This document shows, one piece after another, positions 6,018 through 58,676 of a DNA stretch of 64,000 bases (positions are counted from its first letter, which is position 1; every line of letters begins with the position of its first letter). The DNA is from Candidatus Moraniibacteriota bacterium (lineage in GTDB: Bacteria > Patescibacteriota > Minisyncoccia > Moranbacterales > UBA1568). Location of the stretch: NCBI GenBank assembly GCA_049289395.1, contig JBATLQ010000045.1:5565-69564 (forward strand), in the 5' to 3' direction. The notes beneath the pieces are model-generated. The model made no database searches and had not been told where the DNA came from. It saw only the letters and a list, made by a program, of their open reading frames with translations. The position numbers and the translations under genes were made by a program.

Positions 6018-6050
6018 TGAAAAAAACTCACCAAGTGGTGAGTTTTTTTC
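6018..6050. terminator. bidirectional intrinsic terminator (rpsT / holA)
   Basis: A-run, ACTCACC, AAGT loop, GGTGAGT, then T7. Confidence 0.65.
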
Positions 6051-6083
6051 TGTTCATTGTTTCTTGTTCCCTGTTCCCTGATT

Positions 6084-7052: not shown

Positions 7053-7097
7053 ACTTCCAGTATACCAAAAAGAGCGGTTCCCCGCTCTTTCTTTCAA

Positions 7098-7195
7098 TCA
7101 GCGGTCGTTCCACTTTTTGAGCGGTGCCTCCGCTGATGGAAAGCCTTGTTTTTCGAACAGCGGACGCACCGCCCGCAGGCGGAACGACCGCTCGC
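7098..7195. repeat. REP-like intergenic hairpin repeat, copy A (extended, with flanking 13-bp inverted repeat)
   Basis: Core GGTCGTTCCACTTTTTGAGCGGTGCCTCCGCTG shared with copies at 15381-15450, 20121-20175 and 55698-55790; CAGCGGTCGTTCC (7099-7111) pairs with GGAACGACCGCTC (7181-7193). Confidence 0.6.
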
Positions 7196-7256
7196 GCATA
7201 TTCTGAATTCCCTATTCCAAAGTCTACATTCTACATTCCACATTCTCTATTCTTCT

Positions 7257-10820: not shown

Positions 10821-13454
10821 TTAAATCTCTCCCCAATTCTTCCCGATAGCGGTCTCGACGATGAGGGGTACCGAGAGAGTATACGCGCTTTCCATCACTT
10901 TCTTCAAATCCTTCGCGAATGATTCGGCGGTATCCTCCTTCACTTCGAAAATAAGTTCGTCATGCACCTGGAGGAGCATCTTCACCCGAAACGCATCCCG
11001 ATTATATTCCCTCACGAGCTGTTCCGCCGCGAGCATGGAGAGTTTCATGATATCCGCCGCGAGTCCCTGCACCGGCATATTGATCGCCATGCGTTCCCCG
11101 CTCCGTGCCACCATCACATTCTCGCTCCGGATCTCCGGTACCGATCGTCGCCGCCCGAGCTCCGTCTCCACAAATCCTTTTTCACGCGCACTCACCTTCA
11201 TCGATTCCATGAATTCCGCGACCTTCGGAAACTTCGCGAAGTATGCCGTGATAAATTCACCCGCCTCCTTCTGCCCGATTTCCGCCGCCTGCGCGAGGCC
11301 GAATGCGCCCATGCCGTACATGAGTCCGAAGTTGAACACTTTCGCCTGCCGACGCATATCATTCGTTACCAATTCCGGCGCGACCCGAAACACGACCGCC
11401 CCCGTCGTCCGATGCACATCCTCGCCTTTCTGAAATGCCTCCACGAGCGCGGGGTCACCCGAGAGATGTGCCATGACCCGCAATTCGATCTGCGAATAAT
11501 CCGCCCCGACGAAGAGATATCCATCCTCCGCTTCGAATGCGCCACGAATCTTTTCGCTCCACGCATTGCGGGCGGGAATATTCTGCAAATTCGGATTGGA
11601 CGAAGAGAGTCGCCCCGTCGCCGCGACCGCCTGATGATAGGTCGTGTGAAGCCTCGACTGCGCATCGACGAGCGTCGGGAGTGCATCGAGATAGGTCGTC
11701 TTCAATTTGAAGAGCTCCCGATACTGTTCGATGAGTCCCGCGATCGGATATTCCGCTTTCAATTTGATGAGTTCCGGTGAGGCAGTCGAGATGCCCGTCT
11801 TCGTCTTCTTCACACCCGCGGTCGGAATTTTCAAATCGACGAAGAGAATTTCTGCGAGTTGCTTCGGTGAATTGATATTGAATTCCCGTCCCGCATATTT
11901 GTAGATCTCCTGCTCGAGTCCGGTAATTTCCAGGGTGAGCTCTACTGAGAGCGCGCGAAACTTTTCCGTATTCAACCGGATGCCATTTTCTTCCATCTCT
12001 GCGAGTATCGGAAGGAGTGGCATTTCAATTTGTTCGAATACCGTTCGCACCGTTTTCCCCCCGACCTGATCCTTCGCCATCTCATCCATCTGCTCTGCAA
12101 AATGTTTTTCCAATTGAAGCACCGCCCGCGCCTTCTCTCCGGCTCCGGAGATCTCCTCCATACCGAGCTCCGAGAGTATCAGCCGTTCGAATGACACATC
12201 ACTCCCAGCACTGAGGAGGTATGCCGCGATTTCCACATCGAAAGCGATATTTTTCACAGCTATCTTCTCTGCCGAAAGCCCATGCATGATCGCTTTCCCA
12301 TCGAAGGCCGCTTTTCCGATAGATTCATTTTCGAAAAACTTTTTCAGAAAGACTTTCGTTTCTTCATTCCAGATAATCACTCCCGTTGATTTCTCTGTCG
12401 AGAGGCCAACACTCTCGAGAGCCGAACCAAAGAGCGATCCCATACCCTTTTCCAACCACACCCCAACCCGCATATTCTCTCCAAGAAAATCATTATACTC
12501 TCCCTCTGTCTTGATATTTTTTACCTTCTTTGTTCCCTGTTCCCTGTTCCCTGTTCCTTGTTCCTTGTTCCCTGTTCCCTGTTCACTCCCTGGCAGTCGT
12601 TTCAACAAACTGAAAAATCCGAGCTCCTGCAATAATGCTCCGACGATTTTTTTGTCATAATCTTTCACCACACACTTCTCGAGGTCGAGGGTCACCGGCG
12701 CATCGATACGAATCGCGCCAAGCGTCTTACTGAGGAATGCCTGTTCCTTATCTGTTTCCAATTTCTTCCGCACGGATTCTTTCACTTCTGGCAGATGCGC
12801 ATAGATATTTTCGAGCGTGCCGAACCCTACAAGGAGATCCGTCGCCGTCTTCGCACCGATACCCGAGACGCCCGGGATATTGTCCGAATTGTCCCCGGCG
12901 AGTCCCTTGTAATCCGGAATCTGCGACGGAGTGAAACCATATTTCGCGACGACCGCCGGCACATCATAGAGAACCAGATCCTTCAGACCCTTCCGTATCG
13001 AGAATACCTTGATATGATCATCCACGAGTTGCAGTGCATCATTGTCCCCCGTCACGATGATCACTTCGACACCCTGCGCGCCCGCCTGCTTCGCGATACT
13101 CCCGACGCAATCATCCGCTTCGAATCCGGCGAGCTCGTAGATCGGGATATTCATCGCGCTGACCACCTCTTTCACCCGCGGAATCTGCGCGTACAAATCA
13201 TCCGGTGCTTTCGTCCGCGTCGCTTTGTAGTCCGTATACAATTCATCCCGAAAAGTCTTCCCTTTCAAATCGAAAGACGCCGCGATATATTCCGGATGAA
13301 ACTTCTCCAAAACCGAGAGAAGCGTCGAAGTAAACCCGTACACCGCATGCACCACCTCGCCTTGCTTCGTCGTGAGTGGCGGCAAAGCATGATAGGAGCG
13401 GTGAATCAGCGCGTTCCCATCGATGAGCACCAGTACTTTTTTCTTGTTTTCCAT
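10821..13454 (-). CDS. polA: DNA polymerase I (5'-3' exonuclease + polymerase domains) with low-complexity EQGTGN insertion
   Basis: 5'-nuclease motifs VLVLIDGNALIHRSYHAL; polymerase motifs RRQAKVFNFGLMYGM and LQVHDELIFEV; listed 13493 start is TTG, ATG at 13454 (MENKKKVLVLIDG) preferred. Confidence 0.85.
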   Translation of the reverse strand: MENKKKVLVLIDGNALIHRSYHALPPLTTKQGEVVHAVYGFTSTLLSVLEKFHPEYIAASFDLKGKTFRDELYTDYKATRTKAPDDLYAQIPRVKEVVSAMNIPIYELAGFEADDCVGSIAKQAGAQGVEVIIVTGDNDALQLVDDHIKVFSIRKGLKDLVLYDVPAVVAKYGFTPSQIPDYKGLAGDNSDNIPGVSGIGAKTATDLLVGFGTLENIYAHLPEVKESVRKKLETDKEQAFLSKTLGAIRIDAPVTLDLEKCVVKDYDKKIVGALLQELGFFSLLKRLPGSEQGTGNKEQGTGNREQGTKKVKNIKTEGEYNDFLGENMRVGVWLEKGMGSLFGSALESVGLSTEKSTGVIIWNEETKVFLKKFFENESIGKAAFDGKAIMHGLSAEKIAVKNIAFDVEIAAYLLSAGSDVSFERLILSELGMEEISGAGEKARAVLQLEKHFAEQMDEMAKDQVGGKTVRTVFEQIEMPLLPILAEMEENGIRLNTEKFRALSVELTLEITGLEQEIYKYAGREFNINSPKQLAEILFVDLKIPTAGVKKTKTGISTASPELIKLKAEYPIAGLIEQYRELFKLKTTYLDALPTLVDAQSRLHTTYHQAVAATGRLSSSNPNLQNIPARNAWSEKIRGAFEAEDGYLFVGADYSQIELRVMAHLSGDPALVEAFQKGEDVHRTTGAVVFRVAPELVTNDMRRQAKVFNFGLMYGMGAFGLAQAAEIGQKEAGEFITAYFAKFPKVAEFMESMKVSAREKGFVETELGRRRSVPEIRSENVMVARSGERMAINMPVQGLAADIMKLSMLAAEQLVREYNRDAFRVKMLLQVHDELIFEVKEDTAESFAKDLKKVMESAYTLSVPLIVETAIGKNWGEI
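12528..12590. repeat. heptamer microsatellite (TGTTCCY)x8 inside polA coding sequence
   Basis: tgttccc tgttccc tgttccc tgttcct tgttcct tgttccc tgttccc tgttcac; encodes EQGTGN[KR] repeats; 3 related heptamers also at 6058-6080. Confidence 0.8.
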
Positions 13455-13593
13455 ATCCGCAGTATAATCCGCCAAGAGATTTTCCGCTACCAACCACAGA
13501 CATTGACTGATTACTCATGATAAAAAAAGTGTCACCCACTTATTCGTTTTTTCCCAAAAGCATTTTCAACGCAACCAACCAGGAGGCATCACC

Positions 13594-15380: not shown

Positions 15381-15450
15381 AGAGAGTTGAGGGTTTTTAC
15401 AACGGTGGTTCCGCTTTTTGAGCGGTACGACCGCTGATTGAAAGAATCTT
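15381..15450. repeat. REP-like intergenic hairpin repeat, copy B
   Basis: agagagttgagggtttttacaacGGTGGTTCCGCTTTTTGAGCGGTACGACCGCTG; left flank shared with copy D. Confidence 0.6.
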
Positions 15451-16817: not shown

Positions 16818-16970
16818 TATGATTCTTCATCTCTCTTTCCCACTCATTCTTTTCTCAAAATATGCTAAAATGAATGAAAAGAATTGCAAAAAAAATTTCC
16901 TCATCTCTATTATCCAACTTCTCACTATCTCTCCTAAACTCTCTCCTCTCAACTCTAATCTCTTCTCCCT

Positions 16971-19900
16971 ATGGTTCAAGTCATCCAAGGCACACAAAAC
17001 GACGATCTCTCGAAACAATCGAGTGAGCTCGATGAGCAACTCCAGAAAATAAAGACCGCTTCTATCGAAGAGGAGGCTTCGAGACTCGCTTCCGAATGCG
17101 GTCTCGCCTATGCTGACCTCCATCTCTTCCCCATCCTCGCCGAAGATATCCGGCTCGTGCCCGAAGAAGATGCAACCAAGTTGCAAATAGCCCTCTTCCA
17201 ACAAAGCGGGAAAACCGCTCATTTCGGCATGATAGAGCCTGGAAATGAGGACTCCCGAAATGCTATCACCAAGCTCTGCGAGAAAAATGATTGGAAGCCA
17301 GTGCTCCATGTCATCTCGCAGCCCTCTTTCGACAAGGCGATCGCTATCTATCACGATGCACCCCTCATCAAGAGCCTCGACCTCATGCGCGTCTCCCTCA
17401 CCGGAGCGGACCTCGAAAATTTCGAGAAGAATTTCGGCATGCTCCTCGACCTCGAACACACTTTCCAGAAGGTCTCCACCTCGCAGGTCATCGAAACTAT
17501 CCTCGCGGGGGCGAAACAAATGCGCGCGAGTGACATCCACCTCGAACCCGAAGAAGAGGCGACGCGCCTGCGCTACCGCATCGACGGCGTCCTCCAAGAC
17601 ATCGGAAAATTCCCGAAGTCCGTCTATCACCTCGCCACCTCCCGTATCAAGATGCTCGGGAAGATGCGACTCAATATCCGTGACCGTGCGCAGGACGGTC
17701 ATTTCTTCATCGACCTCGACGGGAAGCGCATCGACATCCGCGTGAACAGCATCCCCGGAAAATACGGCGAGAATATCAACATGCGACTCCTCTCCGCTGA
17801 TAGTCTCGTCGCCAAGGTAGAAGAACTCGGACTGCGCGGTCTCGCCTACGATGCCGTCCGTTCGGAAATCGGGAAGCCCCACGGCATGATTCTCAATACC
17901 GGACCGACCGGCTCCGGCAAGACGACCACCCTCTATACCCTCCTCGGTCAGATGAACGAACCCGGGAACAAGATCATCACCATCGAGGATCCGATCGAAT
18001 ACTCACTGAAGGGCATCGTCCAGACCGAAGTCGCCAAGGGTGGTCAATACACCTTCGCAGACGGCCTGCGCGCCATCGTTCGTCAGGATCCCGACATCAT
18101 CCTCGTCGGTGAGATTCGCGATGAAGAAACCGCTGACATCGCCGTGAACGCCGCCCTCACCGGACATCTCGTCCTCTCCACCCTCCATGCGAACAGTGCC
18201 TCCGCCGCCGTCCCCCGTCTCCTCGAACTCGGCATGAAACGAGAAATGATCACTTCATCCGTCAATTGTTTCATCGCGCAGAGGCTCGTCCGCGTTCTCT
18301 GTGATACTTGCAAAACCTCCTACGAACCCGCGAGAGAAACCGTCGATTCACTGAAAGAGCTTATCGCGATCATCTCTCCGAAATCGAAAGTAGACATTCC
18401 GAAAGAAATCCCCGTGCTCTGGAAATCCGTCGGCTGTCCCTCATGCAATATGACCGGATTCCGCGGCAGGAAGGGTATCTTCGAAGTCCTCCTCATGTCT
18501 CAGCCCGTGACGCAGGTCATCAATGACCTCGGCACCGAAGACGCGATACTCCGCACCGCCCTCGAAGACGGTATGGTGACTATGACGCAGGACGGGATCC
18601 TCAAATCGATCGAGGGTCTCACCACGCTCGAAGAAGTGTGGCGCGTCGCGGATCAAGCCGACATCCTCCGTGATATCTACAATGAACTCATGCCGAGCGC
18701 GCTCTCTCGCTCCTCGGTCATACCAACGCCACTCCTCGAAAAGGTCAAGGCACATCTCGGCAACTTCACTGATTTCTCCGCGTTCACGAAAGAGCTCCCT
18801 CAGAACGAATTCTTCCGTGCTATTTTCGCTGCGGCACTGCTCCTCCGTGCTGGCGACATCCACCTGGAGCCGACCGATACCGAAGTGCTCGTCAGGCTCC
18901 GCATCGATGGCATCCTCCAAACTGTCACCACTTTCCCGAAAAATAATTACCCGGCGATCCTCGGTGAAGTAAAACTCTGGGCCGGACTGAAGTCAGGAGA
19001 GCAAGCGGGCGTCGTCGATGGACGATTCTCTATCTCCATCGAAGAACCATTTGAGAATATTACCAATGTGCAGACCGACATCCGCCTCTCCATCATCCTC
19101 GGCGGTTTCGGTGAGACATCTGTCATGCGACTCCTCAGTAAGAATGCGGTGAAACTCGAACTCTCTTCCCTCCATATCCGCAAAGAAAATCTCGCGCGCA
19201 TCGAGGCCGCGATAAAGAAGCCGAATGGCATGATCCTCAATACCGGACCAACTGGCTCCGGCAAGACGACGACGCTCTACAGTATTCTTTCGGGACTCAA
19301 CAAACCCGAAGTGAAGATTATCACCGTCGAAGATCCGATCGAATACCAAATGCCCGGCATACTCCAAACTCAGGTGAACAATGAACAAGGCTATTCCTTC
19401 GCGCAGGCACTCCGTGCACTCCTCCGTCAAAATCCTGACATCATGATGATCGGTGAAATCCGCGATGAAGAGACCGCCCAGATTGCCGTGCAAGCCGCTA
19501 TCACGGGACACCTCGTCCTCTCCACTCTCCATGCGAACTCTGCCGCCGGTGCTATCCCCCGCATGCTCAATATGGGCGTCACCGGAGACGACCTCGCCAA
19601 TGCCGGGAACTGCTTCATCGCACAGAGACTCGTGCGACATCTCTGCGAGAACTGTCGCGAAGCAGTCACGCCGACTACAGAAGAGGCGACACTCATCGAA
19701 AACTATCTGAGTAAAATCACGCCAGCATCCGGTATCGAAAAGCCAAGCGCCGAAAAAATCTACCAAGCGAGGGGTTGCGAGAAATGTAACGGCACAGGAT
19801 ACACCGGACAAATCGTTCTCTCCGAAGCACTCACCGTCGATCAGTCCATCGAGGAACTCATCTCGCACAACGCACTCGCTTCTGAAATCGAAGCGAAGGC

Positions 19901-20000
19901 AATCGAAGGTGGTATGGTCAGCCTCGCTCAAGACGGCATCCTCGCCGCCCTCGAAGGTCGCACCACCCTCGCCGAAGTCGCCCGCGTGACGGAGGAGTAA
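16971..20000 (+). CDS. pilB: type IV pilus/T2SS assembly ATPase PilB/GspE, tandem-duplicated fusion (two complete ATPase cores)
   Basis: 1009 aa; two Walker A LNTGPTGSGKTTTLY (nt ~17895 and ~19240), two Walker B DIILVGEIRDEETA/DIMMIGEIRDEETA, two His boxes GHLVLSTLHAN, two tetra-Cys clusters; one N-terminal T2SSE_N-like domain. Confidence 0.85.
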   Translation: MVQVIQGTQNDDLSKQSSELDEQLQKIKTASIEEEASRLASECGLAYADLHLFPILAEDIRLVPEEDATKLQIALFQQSGKTAHFGMIEPGNEDSRNAITKLCEKNDWKPVLHVISQPSFDKAIAIYHDAPLIKSLDLMRVSLTGADLENFEKNFGMLLDLEHTFQKVSTSQVIETILAGAKQMRASDIHLEPEEEATRLRYRIDGVLQDIGKFPKSVYHLATSRIKMLGKMRLNIRDRAQDGHFFIDLDGKRIDIRVNSIPGKYGENINMRLLSADSLVAKVEELGLRGLAYDAVRSEIGKPHGMILNTGPTGSGKTTTLYTLLGQMNEPGNKIITIEDPIEYSLKGIVQTEVAKGGQYTFADGLRAIVRQDPDIILVGEIRDEETADIAVNAALTGHLVLSTLHANSASAAVPRLLELGMKREMITSSVNCFIAQRLVRVLCDTCKTSYEPARETVDSLKELIAIISPKSKVDIPKEIPVLWKSVGCPSCNMTGFRGRKGIFEVLLMSQPVTQVINDLGTEDAILRTALEDGMVTMTQDGILKSIEGLTTLEEVWRVADQADILRDIYNELMPSALSRSSVIPTPLLEKVKAHLGNFTDFSAFTKELPQNEFFRAIFAAALLLRAGDIHLEPTDTEVLVRLRIDGILQTVTTFPKNNYPAILGEVKLWAGLKSGEQAGVVDGRFSISIEEPFENITNVQTDIRLSIILGGFGETSVMRLLSKNAVKLELSSLHIRKENLARIEAAIKKPNGMILNTGPTGSGKTTTLYSILSGLNKPEVKIITVEDPIEYQMPGILQTQVNNEQGYSFAQALRALLRQNPDIMMIGEIRDEETAQIAVQAAITGHLVLSTLHANSAAGAIPRMLNMGVTGDDLANAGNCFIAQRLVRHLCENCREAVTPTTEEATLIENYLSKITPASGIEKPSAEKIYQARGCEKCNGTGYTGQIVLSEALTVDQSIEELISHNALASEIEAKAIEGGMVSLAQDGILAALEGRTTLAEVARVTEE

Positions 20001-20039: not shown

Positions 20040-20230
20040 TAGGAACAAAAAAAAGAGACTTCATCACGAAGCCTCTTTTAATTGTCTGCAAGAGAGGGGA
20101 TAAAATGAAACCAAAAAGGAGCGAGAGCGGTCGTTCCCCTTTTTGAGGGGTGCGACCGCTGTTTCCAAAAAGTAAATTTGAGAAACCAAAAGAGACTTCG
20201 TGATGAAGCCTCTTTTACTTATAATTTACA
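20040..20230. repeat. composite repeat region: two inverted hairpin copies flanking REP-like copy C (20121-20175)
   Basis: aaaagagacttcATCACgaagcctctttt (20050-20080) and aaaagagacttcGTGATgaagcctctttt (20188-20216), loops mutually reverse-complementary; core GCGGTCGTTCCCCTTTTTGAGGGGTGCGACCGCTG between. Confidence 0.6.
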
Positions 20231-20251
20231 AATAAAAAAAGGAGGCTCGTT

Positions 20252-20601
20252 TTAAAAGCCTCCATTCACTTCGTCCCGGCGCGATTTACGACACCGAGAA
20301 GCGGTGCCCGATGCTGTCTCGTCAGTGAGCTTGCTCAAAACGACGAAGCTACCCACCGGAATGCCAATCCTCAACTGTTCGCGAGGAAGGGTCAGGATCA
20401 CCCCGCCGAATTCACCTTCATCCTCGGGTTCCACAAACTCGAGAGTCACAGCATTCCCGAAGCGCTCAAAGAATTCGCCTTCGTCCAGGTCTACAGGCGC
20501 AATCCGCGAAGCATCCAGTACGACCGGACCATTCCCGCCTGCATCTTGTTCGATGCTGACGGCATCCGTTTCCAGCAAGCCCATTCGTTCCAACATACAC
20601 T
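20252..20601 (-). CDS. small acidic hypothetical protein (~116 aa)
   Basis: start MKCMLERMG with strong SD (AGGAGGG); listed 195-aa ORF is an upstream extension through a structured leader. Confidence 0.45.
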
Positions 20602-21006: not shown

Positions 21007-21100
21007 AGCGGTATCAAGGTATATTTTCCCCTTATTTTCAGGTATTTTTTCTCTTATCTCTAAAAACTCTAAGAGCCCTAAACCCTAAGTCTCTATTGTC

Positions 21101-23682: not shown

Positions 23683-23777
23683 GTTCACCTCCCGTACCTC
23701 TCATCTACTCTCTCATCTCATATCTATTCTCTAATCTCTCATATCTCACCTCTCAACTCTAATCTCTTCCTCTTCCT

Positions 23778-25181: not shown

Positions 25182-25333
25182 GCAGTAAACAGGGAGCAAT
25201 GAGCACGAAACCAGAAATACAGCGGTCTCTCCGCTGTATTTTGTTTTGAGAAAAAACCTTTCTGCTCTATCCTATAAACATCCTCTTTCTCTTTTTTTTG
25301 TTCACTGTTCGCTGTTAATTGTTATCTGATTTT

Positions 25334-35610: not shown

Positions 35611-36021
35611 TCAATCACTCTTCCGATCTCCTATGACTTGTATATCTGTGACACGGATATTCTCCAGACACTTCGAGTCACCATAGTACTCGCAATCATC
35701 AGGCTCTTTCTCTCCTGTTATTTTAAATACACCGTTTTCATTTTCCCTCACATATTTTACATAATCATCAATCCTTTTTTCATCATCCATCTTTTCAATC
35801 ATTGCAAAGAACCATGGATGATCCTCAAACTCATCTAGTACCCTTCCTTGTTCGATATCATAGTAAGAGAATCGCACATCCCCCGATGTTGAAACTCTTG
35901 AAAGAACGCCATATCTTTCTACAAAAGAACTCCTCCCTGCATTATGTATATTCACCCACAAAATAGAAGCCGCAATAGCAACAAGAAGGAATATTGAAAT
36001 ATAGAGTGAATTTTTTTTCAT
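35611..36021 (-). CDS. hypothetical secreted/membrane-anchored protein
   Basis: signal-peptide-like MKKNSLYISIFLLVAIAASILW; last gene of minus-strand operon. Confidence 0.4.
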   Translation of the reverse strand: MKKNSLYISIFLLVAIAASILWVNIHNAGRSSFVERYGVLSRVSTSGDVRFSYYDIEQGRVLDEFEDHPWFFAMIEKMDDEKRIDDYVKYVRENENGVFKITGEKEPDDCEYYGDSKCLENIRVTDIQVIGDRKSD

Positions 36022-36025
36022 GATA

Positions 36026-36784
36026 TTATTCCATTTTGGATAAAACTTTAATTTCATTCGCCATCCTTATCCATTCTGCATTACTTATTCCATGTGCCAT
36101 TGGATGAGGTATTACAAAATAATTGATGCCTTCCTTTTTACAATAATGAAATCCCTCCGACTTCTTAAATTGACACTTCGCTATTTCAATCCAATGAGGA
36201 AGGTACATAAATGAACAGAAAATTACAGTGGTTGGTCGATGCTTGCTGATATATTTTTGATACAACTTAATCCTCATTGGCATTACCTCCTGAAAATACA
36301 CCCCTCGTGTCATCAAATAATCAATTTTAAAATTAAAATAAACCCAATCCAGCTCGCGTATTGAGCTCGATGGTAATGGCATTAGATCAAGAATACAATG
36401 ATTGCTATCTCGTCGACCAAATCTCGTTTTCTGATATTCTCTCACAATTTCAGTAGTCACAGATTGCTCCTCAAAGGCAAGCAACATGGTGATCAGCTTA
36501 CTCCAAGTTCTTTGAATAGGAGGTCGTTCCCCTAAAAAATATCTTATGTGATCTGGGACATCCGTCATGTCATCACAAATATCAACAACCAAACTATCCT
36601 TTGTTGCTTTGAAGCGAGGCTTCAGATCTTCTAATTCGCCAGCAAACCCCTCTTCCATACACACAAACCAAATATTTGAGTCAATATTTCCATAACCCAA
36701 AAAATTATTGATCCTATTTTCTATAAGTTCTTTCGAAATCATTGCTTTTTTGAAGAAATATTTTTCAATTCCACTTATGAACAC
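36026..36784 (-). CDS. hypothetical protein with uracil-DNA-glycosylase-fold-like motifs (divergent)
   Basis: GYGNIDSNIWFVCMEEGF resembles UDG family-4 motif GEGxpxArlMfVGEAPG; NHCILDLMPLP resembles NvVKCRPP; C-terminal VIPHPMAHGISN resembles HPSxLLRN; by-eye only. Confidence 0.3.
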   Translation of the reverse strand: MFISGIEKYFFKKAMISKELIENRINNFLGYGNIDSNIWFVCMEEGFAGELEDLKPRFKATKDSLVVDICDDMTDVPDHIRYFLGERPPIQRTWSKLITMLLAFEEQSVTTEIVREYQKTRFGRRDSNHCILDLMPLPSSSIRELDWVYFNFKIDYLMTRGVYFQEVMPMRIKLYQKYISKHRPTTVIFCSFMYLPHWIEIAKCQFKKSEGFHYCKKEGINYFVIPHPMAHGISNAEWIRMANEIKVLSKME

Positions 36785-36895
36785 ACGGATTCCGTGTTCG
36801 CCTCCCCTTGTAGTATTCGGACATAGTGGTTAGTGATAAAAAATGGTATCTAGCCTCTCTTCTATTTTTGGATTGTTGAACATAATTCTTCTTAT

Positions 36896-38887
36896 TTATC
36901 CTTTTGAGGTGATAGCCTCCTTCTTGAGACTTAGAATCCTATTCACAACCTTTTCGAGAGACGCACTGCTTTCCCCTGCTGCTTTTGCGCTAGTTATAAT
37001 ATCAGTAACTATATTCGGATTCTTTATTGCGTGTTTCTTCTTTGTTACTCCATACTTTTTCTGACATTCCACAAGAATCCTTTCAAATTCAACAGTGCCG
37101 ATTTCCTCACAAAGAGTGCTTTCAAGTTTGTCTTTAAAGCACGAAAATTTATCTTCAATATATGCTGGCCATTCCTCCTCAATACTACCGACCAATCTGA
37201 GCAATTTTTTATTCTCATCAGGATTCGCCTTTCCATCTGCTTTTCCACACAACTCACACGCTCCAGATGTCTCGCCTTTTCCATAATCGCCATCCCAAAC
37301 TATATATGTCGGTATTCCTAATTTTGTGAAAATTATGTACGGTCTATCTATATTCGTTTTTCCTCCACAAGGAATTATAGAAAATCCATCCCCCTCCAAT
37401 TCGTGCCCCATTGCTTTTGCGGTACCCAATATAGCCGCCCTATCATCTTCACCCTCAACAAGAATATTCGCATCAGCAAAAAATCCCTCATTCATCCAAG
37501 GCGTCATTATGGCGTGAAGCCTGGGAATCAAACTGGCTCCAGTATACTGTTGTCCGCGCTTCCCGTCAGCTTCCCAGCTAGCTAAAGCAACTTCATCTAG
37601 TGTCGTATGAATAACCTTTGTTATTTTCGGTTTCTCCACCTCGTTTACTAACTTACGAAAAAGCCTTATCTGGTCAATCCTATCGATGCCCACAAAATGA
37701 GGAGAGTGAGTACAATATATAATTTGAGTGTTATCGGCTACTCCTGGCATTTTTCCGTCTGCTAACTGTCTTAGTATTTTTGCCAAATGTCTCTGTCTAT
37801 TCGGATGCTGATAAATTTCTGGCTCCTCGATTGCCAAAATAAGCGTGGGTAAATCCGTTTCAGTTACTCCTTCATCGGTCTTTGCACTCTTAACTTGTTC
37901 CATTGCCAAATGCTGAAGTAGGGTCAAAATAAATGCTCGCTGTAGCCCGTGCCCGGTTTTTTCAACTGACGACTCAAATCCGTCTTCAATCAGCTTTATA
38001 TCAGCTTGTGGCATAGGCATAGTAATGCCGGCAAGTGGAAGCCAATTCAATCCAACTTGAGCATTTGGAACATAAATCTTCATCGTTTCAGTCATCTGTT
38101 TTTCTAGAACCTTCAATTCAGTAAGCTTTTCAGGATCCATTATTTCCTTATACTTTTCCTCGGTCTTATTTTTCAATTTAACATACTCCTCCTTTCTCAC
38201 AAGAACACTTCTTACAACCAAATCCATCAAGCGAGAAAACGTAGAGCTTTTTCCATCTTCAATATCAATACCCGCATTACGAACAGCAGGTATAAAGAGA
38301 AACTGCGAAAACTTTCCCAGATAACCCTTCGCCACGCTCTTAAAACCGAAAAATTGTCCGTCATCTCTCATACGAACACATTGTGTACGATTCTCATTCT
38401 CCCATTTATCCAACTCAATTACAGTTGTCTGATTCTTCCAATCCGGCAATCTCTGATATTTTTCATTTTTTTTTAATTCAACATATTTCTCTTTCTTGTC
38501 TCTCGCTGAAGAAGCATTCCTCACTGAAGCGAAATCTGGATTCTGCAAACTTGCACCGTGATACTTAAAACTCGGTTTACCATCAGTCCAATCAATTACA
38601 AGCTCAATAGTTAATTTGTCGTCCTGTAAATAAGAACCAAAAAGACGTTTTGCTTCTTCTGAAAGCTTTTTATATGTAACGGCTACGACTATAGGCGATG
38701 ATGTATCCTTATTATAATAATCATCCTGTTTAATGCTTTGAGAAAAAGCATAAAATATCTCAAGCGCCTTCAGGAAAGTCGACTTTCCTGTCCCATTTGC
38801 CCCAACCAATGCCGTCAGATCCTCCAAATAAACTTCTTCATCCAATAGCGATCTATAATTTTTAATTAAAACAGATTCAATCAACAT
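36896..38887 (-). CDS. OLD-family ATP-dependent nuclease (ABC-type ATPase + C-terminal Toprim)
   Basis: 663 aa; Walker A LVGANGTGKST, Walker B LILAIEEPEIYQHP, H-loop IIYCTHSPHF; C-terminal Toprim motifs ILVEGEDD and IVWDGDYGKGE. Confidence 0.7.
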   Translation of the reverse strand: MLIESVLIKNYRSLLDEEVYLEDLTALVGANGTGKSTFLKALEIFYAFSQSIKQDDYYNKDTSSPIVVAVTYKKLSEEAKRLFGSYLQDDKLTIELVIDWTDGKPSFKYHGASLQNPDFASVRNASSARDKKEKYVELKKNEKYQRLPDWKNQTTVIELDKWENENRTQCVRMRDDGQFFGFKSVAKGYLGKFSQFLFIPAVRNAGIDIEDGKSSTFSRLMDLVVRSVLVRKEEYVKLKNKTEEKYKEIMDPEKLTELKVLEKQMTETMKIYVPNAQVGLNWLPLAGITMPMPQADIKLIEDGFESSVEKTGHGLQRAFILTLLQHLAMEQVKSAKTDEGVTETDLPTLILAIEEPEIYQHPNRQRHLAKILRQLADGKMPGVADNTQIIYCTHSPHFVGIDRIDQIRLFRKLVNEVEKPKITKVIHTTLDEVALASWEADGKRGQQYTGASLIPRLHAIMTPWMNEGFFADANILVEGEDDRAAILGTAKAMGHELEGDGFSIIPCGGKTNIDRPYIIFTKLGIPTYIVWDGDYGKGETSGACELCGKADGKANPDENKKLLRLVGSIEEEWPAYIEDKFSCFKDKLESTLCEEIGTVEFERILVECQKKYGVTKKKHAIKNPNIVTDIITSAKAAGESSASLEKVVNRILSLKKEAITSKG

Positions 38888-38946
38888 ACATGAAAAATCA
38901 AAAAGGGATAAGTCTATTTGCTATATAAATTAAATCAATTAGTTTT

Positions 38947-39168
38947 TTAAAATTTGGATTGGTATCTTGGTTTATATTTGTTAATATAAGCATTCAAACC
39001 ATTATGCTCGCACGCTAATCTTTTCATATTTTCAATATGATTCGATCCTGCACTCATGTATGTATAGATATAAACTGATCCATCATGAAATTGGACTTTG
39101 ATATAGTCATTACCAATTTCAAAAGCATCTACATTTGAATCACCATCTCTATCATTATATGGTTGCAT
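38947..39168 (-). CDS. KTSC-domain small protein
   Basis: 73 aa; IKVQFHDGSVYIYTYMSAG matches KTSC pattern. Confidence 0.4.
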   Translation of the reverse strand: MQPYNDRDGDSNVDAFEIGNDYIKVQFHDGSVYIYTYMSAGSNHIENMKRLACEHNGLNAYINKYKPRYQSKF

Positions 39169-39182
39169 ATAATTTCTATTTA

Positions 39183-39911
39183 TTACGAAATGAATTTAGT
39201 GGTCGCTTCAACAAGCTTAACAAAGCATTGTTTTATATCAGTCCAATCATTACTATTTATCTCCACTTTGTCGCCATCATTATAATTTTTAATATTAGCA
39301 CTAAATACCCTTGTCGCACTTACAAATTTCTTATCTATAATACCTCCTTTATGCACCAACACATGCCTAAGTTCCAAATAAAAACATATCTTTTTCTCAA
39401 TCTCATCTTCCAAGGAAATATTTTTTGATAAATATTTTTCAAAATTTCTTTTTATTGCCTGAAAATCCTGAAAATTAGGCTTTACTTTTTCAAGAACAAG
39501 CCTGCCAAATCCACCCCGATAGGTAAGTTTATTTTTAACTAGTTCAGCCAAAGTAATTTTTATCCCTTCTAACTCTTTATTTTCCAGATTGATTCCATTG
39601 AAACCATTCAAAGCATTTTCAAAATACTTCTTCAGAGTCGCCTCTAAACTTGAAACTGCAAGGATACACATTTGCGAGTATATAACTTTAAAATTGTTTT
39701 CAATTGATCTATTGTTAATATTTTCCAGTCCGCTCTTCGCATTATCCAAAGCTATTTTCACAGTTGTTTGTATTCCAGAAGTATTAATCGCTACAGTCAA
39801 GGCTTGAACTGCCATATCTTTAATCAAACTTGGTGTCCGTTCAAGTTTATCGATATCAGCAAGTTCTTTTTTAAAATTCTTGAGGTAATCAGTCGTTGGC
39901 AATCTTGACAT
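39183..39911 (-). CDS. hypothetical protein with HEPN-like R-x4-H motif
   Basis: 242 aa, mostly helical; ELRHVLVHKGG fits HEPN Rx4-6H signature; first gene of operon. Confidence 0.35.
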   Translation of the reverse strand: MSRLPTTDYLKNFKKELADIDKLERTPSLIKDMAVQALTVAINTSGIQTTVKIALDNAKSGLENINNRSIENNFKVIYSQMCILAVSSLEATLKKYFENALNGFNGINLENKELEGIKITLAELVKNKLTYRGGFGRLVLEKVKPNFQDFQAIKRNFEKYLSKNISLEDEIEKKICFYLELRHVLVHKGGIIDKKFVSATRVFSANIKNYNDGDKVEINSNDWTDIKQCFVKLVEATTKFIS

Positions 39912-39963
39912 ATTTTTTTATACAAACATCCATTATAAAAATCCTTTTTAAACTCCTTTCTTA

Positions 39964-39994
39964 TGAAAACAAACACCCCGGAAGTCCGGGGTGA
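39964..39994 (-). terminator. intrinsic terminator (minus strand) separating DpnI-like operon from OLD operon
   Basis: perfect 9-bp stem CACCCCGGA-AGT-TCCGGGGTG; on minus strand followed by UUUGUUUUC. Confidence 0.5.
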
Positions 39995-40140
39995 TGGAAT
40001 AATCTTGCGAATATGGCTCTTTCCTTTCTTCTTTTTCTATTTAGGATGGGTTTTATTTTTTGTTAGTCCTAGCATACCACAACATGTGAAAAAATACAAG
40101 TGTCAAATCTTTTGAAAAATAAACAAATTTTCATACATAA

Positions 40141-40356
40141 TTATGAACCTGTCCAATCCTCTCTGCACTGTGCGCACCGTTCATTGCCAGTATGATCAAA
40201 ACAGTCAGTAAATTTGTTCGGCTCATATCTTTGCTCATCTTCATTCCAAAAAAACTCGTCATCAATGAGTGTCTCGACAAGCTTTCTTTCTGCTCCGCAA
40301 TGCTGGCAAGCATGCCTAGGAAAATTTTTTGTTTGTACATCCATATTCCCGATCAT
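40141..40356 (-). CDS. small zinc-ribbon protein (71 aa)
   Basis: CQHCG...CAQC Cys pairs; 15 nt downstream of DpnI-like gene. Confidence 0.35.
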   Translation of the reverse strand: MIGNMDVQTKNFPRHACQHCGAERKLVETLIDDEFFWNEDEQRYEPNKFTDCFDHTGNERCAQCREDWTGS

Positions 40357-40371
40357 TGATCGAAAACAAAT

Positions 40372-41139
40372 CTATGTCAAACGATACTGTCCATAACCAA
40401 CAAACTCCAGATAACCCTTATTCCTCAAAATCTGTAACTGTTGCCTTATTTTAGGTCTTATATTTTTGTTTTCAGGATGAATTATAGATAAATCGTACTC
40501 GAAAGCATACATATCCTGTAGGGTAAATTTCTTTTGATTGAGTGAATCAATACAATTCATAATATCCAAGATCCACCCTTTGCTATCCGATTTTTTAATT
40601 TTTTTCAAAAATAATGTCTTCTGCCATTTTTCCAGTACGCTCTTTTTATCCGTCTCTTTCCCATTTTCTACATAGAATATTTGTCCAGCCTTTGGAATCT
40701 TTGAGAATAAAATATTCGAGCCAATCCAGCCAGCGCGTCTGGCATTTTCTCTGAGTGGTTTCCTTTTTTCAATAATCTCGGAGATAAAAAAATGTTTCGG
40801 TATAACAAAAAAATCATACACCTTTGAGGCTTCAGCTATATACCCCATAAAAAAGAAATTTGGTTTTTCTGATGAATTGATTCTTTTGATCATTTGAGAA
40901 TAGGCTCCGGCGGAAACCTTTTTACCAATTTTCCCATTTTTAGATTTTAACTCAAAGTCTTCAACACATGTTTTACAATAAAAATCAGCAACTGGTTTAT
41001 TATTACCATAATTGTAAATACCATTGCCACAATTCGGACAATAAATCTCATGAAGCACCCATGCCTCACTTAAAACACGAGCTTTTTGAGAAACACTCCT
41101 ATACTGAATCGCTAATTTCGTATCAAAAAATAAATTCAT
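40372..41139 (-). CDS. DpnI-like (Dam-replacing family) methyl-directed restriction endonuclease
   Basis: 255 aa; SQKARVLSEAWVLHEIYCPNCGN, ADFYCKTCVEDFELKSK (PD-ExK-like with Zn ribbon), NFFFMGY, RRAGWIGSNI and C-terminal winged-helix-like IRQQLQILRNKGYLEF, as remembered for DpnI. Confidence 0.55.
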   Translation of the reverse strand: MNLFFDTKLAIQYRSVSQKARVLSEAWVLHEIYCPNCGNGIYNYGNNKPVADFYCKTCVEDFELKSKNGKIGKKVSAGAYSQMIKRINSSEKPNFFFMGYIAEASKVYDFFVIPKHFFISEIIEKRKPLRENARRAGWIGSNILFSKIPKAGQIFYVENGKETDKKSVLEKWQKTLFLKKIKKSDSKGWILDIMNCIDSLNQKKFTLQDMYAFEYDLSIIHPENKNIRPKIRQQLQILRNKGYLEFVGYGQYRLT

Positions 41140-41235
41140 AATTGATGATCAATAATCTCCACTGAAAACTCATTTCATAAATGAAATGGTGTCACTATGA
41201 CAAACAATCCTATTTGTCCAAGAACCAATCCATAA

Positions 41236-41694
41236 TCAGAGATTAATTTGATACTGCAGTCGCCTTGTCTTAATCCGCTGATTTAATTCTTCAGATGTCA
41301 ACATTGCGTACCCCTTGCTTTCCGGGTGAAGGCTGACGAAACAAAAACGGTACTGCTTACCCAGTTTATCTGCTAATCGAAACTCATTTTCTGTTGCGCC
41401 AAAGAAAAATCCATCAGGATTATTAACGAGTTTTTTCTGAGTTGTTTTAAGTTCAATCAATACAATCTGCTCAAATGGAACATCCATAATACTCATACCA
41501 CTTACCATTGGAAGAAGAACGAGATCAAATGCACGAGAAAATGTCATTGGCAAATCAAGGCGCCTCAAAATCTCCTTTCGTTCTTCTTTGCTTGGCTTCT
41601 TAAAGCGAGCATCTGATTCAAGTAAAAAATCAACCGCTGATGTCTCGGTTATATTATTCTTAATTGTTGCGCCATATGAATGTTGGTGTGCCAC
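41236..41694 (-). CDS. PD-(D/E)XK-like nuclease superfamily protein (152 aa)
   Basis: AFDLVLLP ... IVLIELKTT matches D...ExK core. Confidence 0.35.
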   Translation of the reverse strand: MAHQHSYGATIKNNITETSAVDFLLESDARFKKPSKEERKEILRRLDLPMTFSRAFDLVLLPMVSGMSIMDVPFEQIVLIELKTTQKKLVNNPDGFFFGATENEFRLADKLGKQYRFCFVSLHPESKGYAMLTSEELNQRIKTRRLQYQINL

Positions 41695-41937
41695 GATCTG
41701 ATTAGATCATACAAAAGCACCCAGATCAAGATCGCCACCAGAAAACTATTCCCCATAATAAAAATTCCCCCATTCTCCCACCCCAGTCGGAATAGCACAA
41801 GTTCCGACGGGAGAAACAAAAAAATCCCTTCTCGGTGGGAATTTCATCCTATTTTCTCTCCCCAGTGACCTTACATGTGGTGTGCCCCAGTTACATTCCG
41901 AATGATGTAACGGGGCAGGCGGGGTAAACCACCCTAT

Positions 41938-42474
41938 TTATTCAGCAACAAATCGAATCGAGATCTTTTTGTCCATATACTGTCGAAGGTGTCCGATGAG
42001 AGTCGCAGCGACCTCATTCATTTCCATACTTTCAACTTCTTTCAATATGGTAATTTCAGCCAAATCTTCGCTCGTCTCATCGTTGATAATCGTAATCACA
42101 CCAGGCCTCTTCCCTATGACGATAGATTTCAATACTCCTTTCTCTTTTTTGGTTATCTTCAATTCATCAACCATCATGCTGTATGTTTCTGCTGCTGTTT
42201 CATAATCCTTTTTCGACTCAACCAGCCCTGCTATCCTATTGACGGCTAAGCCATTCTTCATATGCTCACCCATTATTTTCGATAGTGAAAAAACCTCCTC
42301 ACGGGGAGCCTGCTTCAATTCCAATTCTTCGAGAGAAAGCCCCATCGCCAGCTGATATGAAACGAAAAGTTCCTCGCTACTGATATTGTTGCTTTTCGAA
42401 AAAGATATTATCTCTTCCAACTGCTTCTCTTGCGGATCATCTCCCGTCTTCGGAAACTCCATTGGATTTTTCAT
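41938..42474 (-). CDS. hypothetical protein (178 aa)
   Basis: ORF with coding-like composition, acidic; no family recognised. Confidence 0.4.
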   Translation of the reverse strand: MKNPMEFPKTGDDPQEKQLEEIISFSKSNNISSEELFVSYQLAMGLSLEELELKQAPREEVFSLSKIMGEHMKNGLAVNRIAGLVESKKDYETAAETYSMMVDELKITKKEKGVLKSIVIGKRPGVITIINDETSEDLAEITILKEVESMEMNEVAATLIGHLRQYMDKKISIRFVAE

Positions 42475-42697
42475 ACTATATTTGTTATTTCTTCCAATCC
42501 CGAATTACTACCCCACCGCGGACGCGGGTGACCACTACTTTTTGCTTCTCTCTCCATCCAAGCTCGCGGACGAGCTCAATCGGGAGCGTCAGCCCAATAG
42601 ACTTTCCACCGAGTTTGGTAAGTTTCCGAACGCTTTTATCCGTTGCTTGTTTTGGCATAATATTTTCTTTAGTTTATCGCCTCATTTTCAGTCCCCC

Positions 42698-42726
42698 TTG
42701 TCAATTTTGTCAATATTTGGTATATT
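42698..42726 (+). promoter_or_regulatory. sigma70-like promoter TTGTCA-17-TATATT
   Basis: TTGTCA 42698-42703, spacer attttgtcaatatttgg, TATATT 42721-42726. Confidence 0.5.
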
Positions 42727-42732
42727 CTAGTT

Positions 42733-42790
42733 GGTCGCGAGGAAACCCGCGCCCATCAAAATGGAGTCTCCTTGGGAGGCTCTTTTTTGA
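42733..42790 (+). ncRNA. candidate ~55-nt small RNA (promoter-to-terminator unit), antisense to 3' end of DUF3800 gene
   Basis: promoter above; terminator hairpin GAGUCUCC-UUG-GGAGGCUC (one G.U) then UUUUUU at 42765-42790; a GCGAGG/CCCGCG 5' hairpin. Confidence 0.3.
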
Positions 42791-43565
42791 TATTCTCCTT
42801 GATATTCTCCAAAGTTAATGGAAAAACTTTCAATCCAATTCCTAAGCAATCCCCTTTTACCTTCAAGAGCTTTGGATAAGTGATATCACTATAGCGCCAA
42901 TATTCTTCTGGCTTTTTCCCATACTCAAAAATATGATACACGGGATAGCAATAGAGATCAGCTATTTGTATTCCGACAGTATCCTCGGAAGTCGAATACA
43001 GAAGCTTTTCAACGATATTCGGACACTTTTTCCATATATCCCCATCCCTCCATCGCATCATATGATGAATATCCTTAAGAGAATCACCGATAAATGATTT
43101 TTCAACTGTTCCGACACGAGGATCAATCACACAGAGACCGAGCGAATTCCGCTCTTTCAAAAATCGCTGAAATCTTTCGAGGAGATAGAGGTATGCTATC
43201 TCATATGGATTCTGTGATGGGTATTGTTTCCAATAAGCATCCTTATTAATCACTATGGCTATCAATGTGATTGGCAGGGAAACCAAGTATGCCTTTATAT
43301 CAGCCTCAAGTTGATTATACATTTCTCGATCATGCAGTTTGAGCGGCGATTCCTGTTCCAAGTCGGGATTCGCATACCGAAGGAAGTTTGATTTGATTTC
43401 AAGATCTTCATTCTGAAAATATTTCTTTTTGATTACACGGAGATCTTCTTCAACTTTCACGCGGTCCGAATCATTGATGATGCATCCAGTCAAAACCAAA
43501 AACTGCTTTCCTTTTTGAGAAAGCGGTATAGTATCACCCGATTCATCTATATACATGAGATACAT
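42756..43565 (-). CDS. DUF3800-family protein
   Basis: 269 aa; N-terminal MYLMYIDESGD hallmark of DUF3800. Confidence 0.6.
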   Translation of the reverse strand: MYLMYIDESGDTIPLSQKGKQFLVLTGCIINDSDRVKVEEDLRVIKKKYFQNEDLEIKSNFLRYANPDLEQESPLKLHDREMYNQLEADIKAYLVSLPITLIAIVINKDAYWKQYPSQNPYEIAYLYLLERFQRFLKERNSLGLCVIDPRVGTVEKSFIGDSLKDIHHMMRWRDGDIWKKCPNIVEKLLYSTSEDTVGIQIADLYCYPVYHIFEYGKKPEEYWRYSDITYPKLLKVKGDCLGIGLKVFPLTLENIKENIKKEPPKETPF

Positions 43566-43723
43566 GGATTTCTACGATATGCGTCTACCAATATAATTAC
43601 ATACCTCGTTACATATATCCTATCACCTCCCCATTCCCACGGCAATTTACGCCGAGTCCCTTTATGAAGGGAATTTCATCGCTCTTGAAAGCAAAAATCC
43701 GCCACTCGGGCGGATATTTTCCA

Positions 43724-44020
43724 CTAATCCATGCTCACCTTGATCTCGCGTATCGCTTCGAGGCCGAGCATGGAATTCGTTTTTTCGGCGATATTCTTTC
43801 TATTGAGCCAGATTTCACTCGCCCAGAGGGAACTCCGGAAGCCGACGAAGAGCTTTTTCTCCTTATAGAACCTCGGTTCTATATTTTCCTCACCCCTCGT
43901 CCCATATTCCGCGTGGATCACCTTATTGAAAACCGAGAAAATCGTCTTTTCATCGATTTCTTTCAGCTCTTTCGGTGCTTGAAAGTTCTTTTTTTCGAGA
44001 TATTGTCTGAGATCAAGCAT
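43724..44020 (-). CDS. DUF721/DciA-like small protein
   Basis: 98 aa; RSSLWASEIWLNRKNIAEKTNSMLGLEAIREIKV resembles DUF721; immediately downstream of dnaN. Confidence 0.5.
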   Translation of the reverse strand: MLDLRQYLEKKNFQAPKELKEIDEKTIFSVFNKVIHAEYGTRGEENIEPRFYKEKKLFVGFRSSLWASEIWLNRKNIAEKTNSMLGLEAIREIKVSMD

Positions 44021-45185: not shown

Positions 45186-45444
45186 AGGAGTATCTTTAAG
45201 AGTAAGGTTTCTTCTTTAATTATTTAAAAAAATTATTTATTACTATTAGGGGTGTGAATTGGTGGATAAGTGGATTATATGGCTTATGATAAGGATGAAA
45301 AAAGATGGGAGTAGGGAGGGTATTGGTGTGTAGGGGATGTGGGTTAGGTGTGATGGATGGGAATAGGTATGGGAATGATTTTTTTATACACGATACAAGG
45401 GGAGTTTAGGAGGGGTTATTCAGGGTTATACACATATTATACCG
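45186..45444. other. candidate oriC (dnaA-dnaN intergenic): AT-rich unwinding element plus DnaA-box-like motifs
   Basis: AT-rich ttaattatttaaaaaaattatttattactatt (45207-45243); GGTGGATAAG and GTGGATTAT close to TGTGGATAA; G/T-rich degenerate repeats; gene-orientation switch around this locus. Confidence 0.5.
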
Positions 45445-46875: not shown

Positions 46876-47015
46876 AGGGAATACAAGGGAATGAAATATA
46901 GGTAAATATATCATGACGGCACAATTCTATCGAGTGGGGCGGTGCATATCCGGTGTATAAGTAGGGAGGATGCGTGTGTCTGCCCGCATTGCTACGCAAA
47001 GCGTTGCGGGCGGGA

Positions 47016-48788: not shown

Positions 48789-48925
48789 GGAAAACACAAA
48801 AATGAAAAACACAGAAACCAAACAAAGCACAATTCTCAAAGCACAAGCAGGAACAAACTTGTGTTTTGGCTTTTGGTTATCGTGCTTTGTTTGGATTTTG
48901 TGATTTGAGTTTTGTGCTTTTTTCT
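48789..48925. repeat. CA/GT-rich palindromic ~135-bp intergenic repeat, copy X
   Basis: shares gaaaacacaaa, ccaaacaaagcacaa and gtgctttgtttgg...tttgtgatttgag...ttgtgc with 56995-57128 (opposite orientation); internal arms CCAAACAAAGCAC/GTGCTTTGTTTGG. Confidence 0.65.
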
Positions 48926-55695: not shown

Positions 55696-55697
55696 GA

Positions 55698-55790
55698 AAG
55701 AGAGTTGAGGGTTTTTTACAACGCCTGCCTGCCGGTAGACAGGGTGGTTCCGCTTTTTGAGCGGTGCCCCCGCTGTAAAAAACTTCTTCT
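55698..55790. repeat. REP-like intergenic hairpin repeat, copy D
   Basis: agagagttgagggttttttacaac...GGGTGGTTCCGCTTTTTGAGCGGTGCCCCCGCTG. Confidence 0.6.
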
Positions 55791-55809
55791 TGAGAATATA
55801 GGGAGGCTC

Positions 55810-58174: not shown

Positions 58175-58232
58175 ATTCAGCCTACAAATTACGAATAAAT
58201 TACTACAAATATACAAATTCTACAAATAGCTC

Positions 58233-58631: not shown

Positions 58632-58676
58632 ATTCGTAGAATTTGTATATTTGTATCTCGATTTGTAATTTGTAGG

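Follow-up and report, generated by a model that had tools for sequence, protein, structure and literature searches.

The window, by which we mean the whole 64,000-nucleotide stretch of DNA that was analysed, contains five copies of a short palindromic repeat, and these copies probably represent a lineage-restricted family that behaves like the REP and REPIN sequences. Comparison with related genomes showed that copies of the family are gained or lost, flipped, doubled inversely, nested, and occasionally fixed in frame in genes.

Detection of the repeat in the window

The core GGTSGTTCCNCTTTTTGAGSGGT was located at positions 7103, 15404, 20129 and 55743, in all cases on the plus strand and with 0 mismatches. 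When the core was written as a degenerate 23-nt pattern, four exact matches were obtained in the window where 0.01 were expected by chance, and 0 of 100 shuffled sequences reached four. A repeat finder run on the window grouped the same four copies as one family (D3), so the conserved core that a preliminary description had placed at four sites was borne out, and it lies above chance. A covariance model (CM; R1) was then built from 78 aligned copies, with a 33-nt core in a 49-nt model. Run over the whole window with filters off, it returned exactly five full copies at 44-68 bits (E 1e-13 to 1e-21), and a half-site search of the window yielded 0 copies beyond these five. The repeat unit consists of the 33-nt core and measures about 45-50 nt including its flanks, and 5/5 window copies are intergenic (Table 1).

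What had been described as a 13-bp flanking inverted repeat of copy A is actually a complete fifth copy in inverted orientation, which was also revealed by pairwise alignment, and copy A is therefore a doublet. Together, A1 and A2 form a REPIN-like doublet at approximately 7100-7192, and folding of 7089-7200 gives a single hairpin about 100 nt long, at -59.6 kcal/mol and z -7.6. The preliminary description had overlooked this fifth copy, as well as the single-long-stem form of the hairpin and the in-frame copies in relatives that are described below. One further hairpin, at 25216-25244, has only the outer CAGCGG/CCGCTG stem in common with the repeat (fold -16.9 kcal/mol, z -5.9); it resembles an ordinary terminator, and its membership of the family is doubtful.

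Table 1. Repeat copies and associated features in the window.
Feature	Position	Strand	CM score (bits)	Core	Remarks
Copy A1	7095-7143	+	59.7	7103-7135	Flanks tcaatCAGCGG...CCGCTGATgGA lengthen the stem; fold -20.5 kcal/mol, z -3.1
Copy A2	7150-7197	-	43.8		Inverted partner of A1; loop CTGCGG for TTTTTGA
B/D common flank	15381-15403	-			Reads gttgtaaaaaCCCTCAACTCTCT; immediately precedes the tsaE ATG (15367)
Copy B	15396-15444	+	56.5	15404-15436	Divergent gap, tsaE (-) / DHH-family gene (+)
Copy C	20121-20169	+	68.3	20129-20161	Perfect stem, inner CCCC/GGGG; fold -29.5 kcal/mol, z -5.9; convergent gap after pilB
Minimal hairpin ACAGCGGTctctCCGCTGT, then T-run	25216-25244	+	18.7		23 model positions skipped
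113-bp block	55696-55808	+			Leader motif + nested module + copy D + tail
20-nt palindromic module gcctgcctgccggtagacag	55723-55742	+			Lies nested within copy D's 5' arm
Copy D	55736-55783	+	46	55743-55775	tttttacaac/ctgtaaaaaa subfamily

Hairpin structure and covariation

Alignment of the 78 copies gave a single hairpin with up to 14 pairs, one T.T mismatch, five further pairs and a loop of 3-7 nt. A two-tier hairpin had been proposed earlier; the copies do fold as hairpins, but what was drawn as two tiers is one longer stem of about 14 bp, followed by the T.T mismatch and then 5 bp. On RNA folding, all five window copies beat their shuffles (z -2.7 to -5.9). Paired cells amounted to 83.6% in the alignment. 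Column shuffles gave 75.8%, with 0 of 500 reaching the observed value, and controls with slid partners gave 35-65%. The covariation score over the 78 copies was 0.218 versus 0.096, and this covariation partly reflects subfamily history and not independent events, because the copies are paralogous.

At pair 12-34, CG is found in 50 copies and UA in 21, at pair 18-28 GC is found in 67 copies and CG in eight, and the four outermost pairs show swaps between AU and UA. Further compensatory variants, of the form GTCAC.../...GTGTG, change pair 13-33 from G-C to A-U and pair 14-32 from U.G to C-G. Among the unpaired or mismatched columns, the T.T at 15-31 is invariant, and A.C and T.T mismatches recur. 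The outer stems fall into subfamilies (atttcatttcaac/ctgaaatgaaat, attttttayaac/ctgtaaaaaat, caaacaac/ctgtttg and gagagc.../...ctgtttgaaaa), and the loop varies between TTTTTGA, TTTTGGA, CTGCGG-type and TGTCTCA. Copy C differs from its orthologue in L007 (loci of relatives are cited here by L numbers) at five core positions, four of which make up two compensatory pairs, with the remaining one in the loop.

These data show that the family is maintained at the nucleic-acid level, with stems that covary and a hairpin that is kept across reading frames. Each copy can fold into a single hairpin that is long and imperfect, be it as single-stranded DNA or as RNA, and whichever way it is oriented. A tandem operator of two GCGG-N5-CCGC palindromes was also considered and was dropped, since it takes the nested hairpin model for the changes from CCGC/GCGG to CCCC/GGGG and from C-G to T-A to be compensatory.

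Distribution in relatives

An exact scan of the GTDB representatives, one genome per species, was carried out with a version of the core having 20 specified bases. This gave 46 loci with approximately 60 strict matches, all of them in three MAGs: CAYOIM01 and CAZIBB01 (both labelled 'uncultured Bdellovibrionales') and JBATNG01 ('Candidatus Moraniibacteriota'). As all three share synteny with the window, with nucleotide identities of 75-95%, their labels cannot all be right. The DnaN protein of the window is also present in GCA_049663265.1, and the host lineage is probably Patescibacteria/CPR. In a metagenome collection the same pattern was found on 20 contigs, all from one assembly (WBZP01). 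Viral contigs scanned with the same pattern gave 0 matches, and a phage origin was ruled out on that ground.

With the covariance model at a threshold of at least 35 bits, about 105 distinct copies were counted in 310 kb of MAG loci, and about 45 further copies in 63 kb of WBZP01 loci. In total, the three related MAGs and one metagenome contributed about 150 occurrences of the same repeat in about 370 kb, with none elsewhere in the collections scanned. The strict pattern by itself was counted 47 times in CAYOIM01, on contigs totalling about 474 kb. The window holds five copies per 64 kb versus about one per 3-6 kb in the relatives' loci, a density that is inflated because these loci were fetched around matches. 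Clusters of alternating orientation were found in L004, L018, L020, L042, L045 and L057. The repeat family is real, abundant and very narrowly distributed. In the literature library searched there was no paper tying REP, RAYT or REPIN to Patescibacteria/CPR, which is weak negative evidence.

Turnover at orthologous sites

Counterparts of copy A were found at orthologous sites in L003 and L063. An orthologue of copy B lies in L026 (506-554) with its right flank conserved, and orthologues of copy C lie in L007 (602-650), L013 (2171-2219) and L026 (7220-7269) and show compensatory-pair differences. Copies A, B and C thus persist across genomes that share only about 80% identity in their genes, and the cores are conserved at least as well as the neighbouring coding DNA. 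The intergenic DNA of the relatives is mostly unalignable around the copies.

In L003, A1 is found between identical flanks with its asymmetric interior inverted, and doublets similar to A1/A2 occur in L063 and L007. Pairwise alignment showed that the 113-bp block containing copy D is missing from the orthologous junction in L028, where only 2 nt separate the ATG of one gene from the stop codon of its neighbour; this may be either an insertion or a deletion. Comparison of copy D with the L028 junction (...TTTTCAT/.../CCTAGAG) revealed no target duplication in this one clean case. In L007, a doublet with a leader is present where the window, at about 21045-21100, has unrelated sequence. A paralogous composite at L015:5420-5600 has the architecture of copy D, with the 20-nt module at the same position. 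Nested palindromes were seen in loops in L013 and L019, longer versions of the module lie inside an L019 element, and in L030 one repeat element is located inside another.

Copy C is itself flanked by two terminator hairpins (20051-20079 and 20188-20216) of the form AAAAGAGACTTC-loop-GAAGCCTCTTTT. Their stems are identical and the 5-nt loop is inverted between them (ATCAC versus GTGAT), and the L013 orthologue has the opposite loop. Loop flipping of palindromes seems to be common in the lineage of the window.

Copies inside genes of relatives

Using a conservative frame-and-codon test applied to the relatives only, about 8% of copies were scored as intragenic and about 92% as intergenic. In L030, an intact ORF of 808 aa corresponds to the NAD-dependent DNA ligase LigA, with its adenylation domain matched in three pieces. 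Compared with E. coli LigA (2OWO), this protein carries three insertions, about 44, 31 and 38 residues long, at approximately 106-108, 234 and 424-425, the third of which falls within the zinc finger, and each insertion is made of one or two repeat copies. Site 2 is also occupied by a copy in the LigA of L045, placed in another reading frame via flanking indels (AVAPLQKRNNRS versus SGRTAQKAERSL), and between L045 and L030 the site-2 stem shows a compensatory change from C-G to T-A. At site 1, where L030 has two copies, L045 (7130-7175) instead carries an in-frame small palindrome that is perfect and of another kind, CCTCCCCTTGGAAAGGGGAGG; palindromic insertions seem to favour this site.

Two in-frame copies were found in TatD (L023) and one in an amidase-like ORF (L050), and in L057 the tail of a 416-aa ORF is made of several copies. 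The in-frame element is read in all three frames, giving AVAPLKKRNDRS, SGRTAQKAERPL and ...SGTTA. Intragenic copies with a TTTTTGA or TTTTGGA loop are always antisense to the gene, which is the orientation that is stop-free in every frame, and this points to selection against stops.

Gene context and transcription signals

Pfam analysis of the genes next to the window copies agreed with the preliminary description for holA, DUF3048, tsaE, DHH and the fused double PilB, but not for the PD40 and Cys-rich genes named beside copy D: one neighbour of this copy has no match and the other has a weak T4SS_pilin match. The orientation of copies relative to genes was determined using crude but consistent gene calls, filtered by codon score. 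Tandem-same and tandem-anti arrangements were represented by 15 and 18 copies, and convergent and divergent arrangements by 11 and 9, with no orientation bias overall or in any subtype.

Consensus scans at the four window loci found no T-run after any copy and no sigma-70 match, and canonical terminators are located beside A (7069-7092) and C (20051-20079 and 20241-20263). A search of Rfam gave nothing at gathering score and nothing overlapping a copy at E up to 1, which rules out a known RNA family, and no tRNA or tmRNA was found in the window. Identity as a terminator or promoter was rejected on the negative consensus scans and the census without orientation bias. With no T-run or sigma-70 match, separate terminators, no bias and no Rfam family, a dedicated terminator or attenuator role is unlikely, and the missing T-runs, the separate terminators and the unbiased orientation speak against the transcription-attenuating motif that had been suggested. 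Any cis effects of the window copies are at most mild, and the copies are probably bystanders.

The left flank reported to be common to copies B and D was recovered at 15381-15403 and 55699-55722, differing by a 1-nt indel. It consists of a subfamily outer-stem half (tttttacaac) and the reverse complement of a pyrimidine-rich motif, CCTCAACTCTCT, which lies directly upstream of the ATG of minus-strand genes. In copy D, the flank is parted from the core by the nested 20-nt palindrome. A search for the pyrimidine motif gave 21 matches against 9.2 expected, the best ones being upstream of start codons. Read on the minus strand, the attttttayaac subfamily in B and D has TAAAAAA, a CCTCAACTCT-type leader and then a start codon, and the same arrangement of TAAAAAA and leader is found in four copies of relatives (L009, L023, L035 and L040). 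The D block places its CCTCAACTCT-type leader at the ATG of the downstream gene. Judged from its sequence, the B/D subfamily may carry an outward-facing promoter/leader piece by the downstream ATG.

Pyrimidine-rich motifs (TCTCACCTCTCAACTCTAATCTCTTC and its variants) were noted immediately before start codons at 16933-16968, 23702-23769, 61293-61323 (-), 15381-15392 (-) and 55699-55710 (-). These pyrimidine motifs sit where a purine-rich Shine-Dalgarno sequence would be expected, and they resemble the 16S rRNA 3' end, not its complement.

Search for a mobilizing enzyme

The E. coli RayT protein was compared using phmmer with ORFs of at least 60 aa from the window and 66 loci (about 440 kb, partial genomes), and no match was obtained below E=0.4 in this single-sequence search, which is weak for distant RAYTs. 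A probe for IS200, treated as no more than a lead, detected one ordinary IS200 tnpA at L043:6118-6537, in the MAG richest in the repeat; its identity rests on its own HUH (HVHML) and Y (GYAVSTVG) motifs. The end hairpins of this tnpA (CCACTGG..CCAGTGG and CCACCAG..CTGGTGG) are unrelated to the repeat. With no RAYT match and unrelated IS200 ends, neither RAYT nor IS200 is supported as the mobilizer.

Two nuclease genes with inverted repeats of their own adjoin or replace elements. In L030, a small GIY-YIG nuclease gene lies between CCCGCACACCAA inverted repeats (2123-2470), abutting hairpin elements that are nested; the interrupted ligA is located downstream of it. In the window, a small PD-(D/E)XK (PDDEXK_3) gene at 58233-58631 (-) is enclosed, within 58204-58655, by 25-nt inverted repeats that are 96% complementary, and L028 has a hairpin repeat at the junction where the window has this gene. 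The region 58204-58655 may be a small mobile nuclease cassette. No link of the GIY-YIG or PD-(D/E)XK gene to the repeat family was shown.

Other features of the window

The dnaN gene (44034-45185, -) adjoins a DnaA-type gene (45445-46914, -; L069 annotation), and GC skew switches sign near 44-47 kb, at the cumulative-skew minimum. In a sister contig, DciA follows dnaN. The region 44034-46914 is probably the replication origin region. The adjacent region 36000-44000 is of low GC content (36-39%). Its genes include those for an OLD-family AAA_15+TOPRIM nuclease (36896-38887), a DpnI-like restriction enzyme (40372-41139) and a DUF3800 protein (42756-43565), and the region has the appearance of an acquired defence island next to the origin.

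The ORF of 1009 aa at 16971-20000 has two T2SSE (PilB-type ATPase) domains and represents a fused tandem PilB, with an internal duplication whose repeats are offset by 1344 nt and share 74-87% identity. Runs of a 7-nt unit, TGTTCCC/TGTTCNC, occur at 6039-6080, 12512-12581 and 25287-25328, one of them apparently within an 890-aa ORF (10821-13493) and the others intergenic. Long inverted repeats that are G/T-rich (or A/C-rich) were found 8 kb apart at 48799-48920 and 56997-57109, with 58 nt that are 81% complementary and 43 nt that are 84% complementary. They are intergenic and upstream of genes, and may be another dispersed repeat family.

Alternative explanations

If the family is REP-like, its propagation would be non-autonomous, with a trans-acting enzyme not encoded in the window acting on the hairpin, and palindrome-driven template switching or gene conversion might assist it. 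The window copies would be dispensable as promoters or terminators, and would act at most as incidental RNA hairpins or spacers. Against the REP-like explanation stand the lack of a transposase tied to the element, and the conservation of A, B and C at orthologous sites, which would also be expected of a site useful to the host. Such a site, in line with the protein-binding motif that had also been suggested, could be a palindrome or cruciform to which a protein of the chromosome binds (for instance gyrase, a regulator or a nucleoid-associated protein) and which is kept even in genes. The persistence of A, B and C within unalignable intergenic DNA fits this idea, as do the compensatory change that preserves the ligA hairpin despite the differing reading frame, the invariant mismatched positions, which suggest sequence-specific recognition, and the independence of orientation. 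However, copy number differs several-fold between close relatives (whose loci were chosen around matches), copies are present, absent or replaced at orthologous junctions, and selfish repeats typically show such self-nesting and such clustering, in tandem or inverted. No candidate binding protein was identified. We regard a host-functional DNA site as unlikely.

It is rather improbable that the repeat works at the RNA level, as a terminator or attenuator, a 3'-end stabilizer or a processing site, with B and D as part of a promoter/leader cassette. Strong hairpins with z -2.7 to -5.9, the covariation support and the presence of G.U pairs favour such a role, most copies are at gene ends, and B, D and four copies of relatives precede TAAAAAA and a CCTCAACTCT-type leader before a start codon. 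These points are set against the absence of a T-run or sigma-70 consensus at the window copies, the canonical terminators already beside A and C, the unbiased orientation relative to the upstream gene, the lack of an Rfam match even at E up to 1, and the occurrence of copies in divergent promoter gaps and inside ORFs, with orthologues that can be flipped. Chance likeness among GC-rich terminator-like hairpins, with no true family, might be suspected from the plain terminator hairpin at 25216-25244, which has the same CAGCGG/CCGCTG stem, but it is practically eliminated by the 0 of 100 shuffles with four matches, the covariance-model E values of 1e-13 to 1e-21 and the approximately 150 copies in relatives. 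The self-nesting, the copies in several frames and the conservation of the ligA hairpin leave room for something more novel than a REP-like family. We would suggest only tentatively, as an outcome we do not expect, a novel, very small self-nesting hairpin element of ultra-small bacteria that colonizes intergenic DNA, the loops and arms of other copies, and, in frame, essential genes such as ligA by non-RAYT mobility, and that would persist as a nucleic-acid hairpin even within coding sequence. Such mobility might depend on a hairpin-specific nuclease of another kind or on replication template switching, and if this were true, non-RAYT hairpin elements would be a source of protein 'expansion segments' in the lineage.

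The repeat matters because genomes streamlined to about 1 Mb are generally regarded as poor in repeated or selfish DNA. The density found here is comparable to that of E. coli REPs, and gene junctions and essential proteins have been reshaped. The family provides a marker for the lineage and may explain some unalignable intergenic regions and odd protein insertions. For annotators, short 'extra' protein segments in these MAGs can be repeat insertions and not assembly errors. The ligA site that two genomes share lends itself to testing for selection on a DNA- or RNA-level hairpin within coding sequence.

Comparison with known repeat families

The REP, BIME and REPIN sequences of Enterobacteria and Pseudomonas are repetitive extragenic palindromes mobilized by RAYT tyrosine transposases. 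The cognate RAYT (a Y1 HUH transposase) of REPs is found in the same genome and is usually flanked by REPs. The repeat described here is like them in being an imperfect palindrome of about 35-50 nt with tens to hundreds of copies, mostly extragenic, and in occurring as singles, as inverted doublets folding as one hairpin and as alternating clusters. It is also similar in its lineage-specific sequence, its subfamilies, and its gain and loss between relatives. It differs in having no sequence similarity to them, in being partly in frame in genes, and in its nested palindromes. The GTAG-like 5' tetranucleotide of REPs is absent, and the 5' side here reads (G/C)A(G/A)CGGTCG (78 copies).

MITEs such as the Correia elements of Neisseria and ERIC, and palindrome-associated elements derived from IS200/IS605, sometimes carry promoters or terminators, and ERIC and others are occasionally intragenic. 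The present repeat is similarly structured and dispersed, and probably non-autonomous like them, but it is much shorter, and no full-length IS with matching ends was found, the sole transposase detected being the IS200 tnpA of L043. The earlier designation 'REP/MITE-like' is supported for its REP-like half, as a short repeated palindrome that is mostly extragenic, forms doublets and is polymorphic, and is not supported for the MITE half, since terminal inverted repeats with a target-site duplication were lacking at the single clean comparison of a filled and an empty site. Integron attC sites and CRISPR repeats were dropped on anatomy, as the repeat occurs as dispersed single units with no RYYYAAC/GTTRRRY and no arrays, and a DNA uptake sequence was dropped because the repeat is too long and too rare.

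The RPEs of Rickettsia, for which one account summarizes the original description (PMC10969869), are palindromic repeats that lie between genes and in frame in unrelated genes, including essential ones, and do not destroy them. RPEs measure about 100-150 bp, and each family has a conserved peptide in one frame. The repeat described here is like them in occupying a small reduced genome and in its in-frame insertion into functional ORFs, here in the relatives and not in the window. It differs in that its unit is about 45 nt, three frames are used, the hairpin and not the peptide is conserved, and the host belongs to another phylum. We conclude that this is probably a new, lineage-restricted family, REP/REPIN-like in its general properties, with behaviour like that of the Rickettsia RPEs in coding regions.
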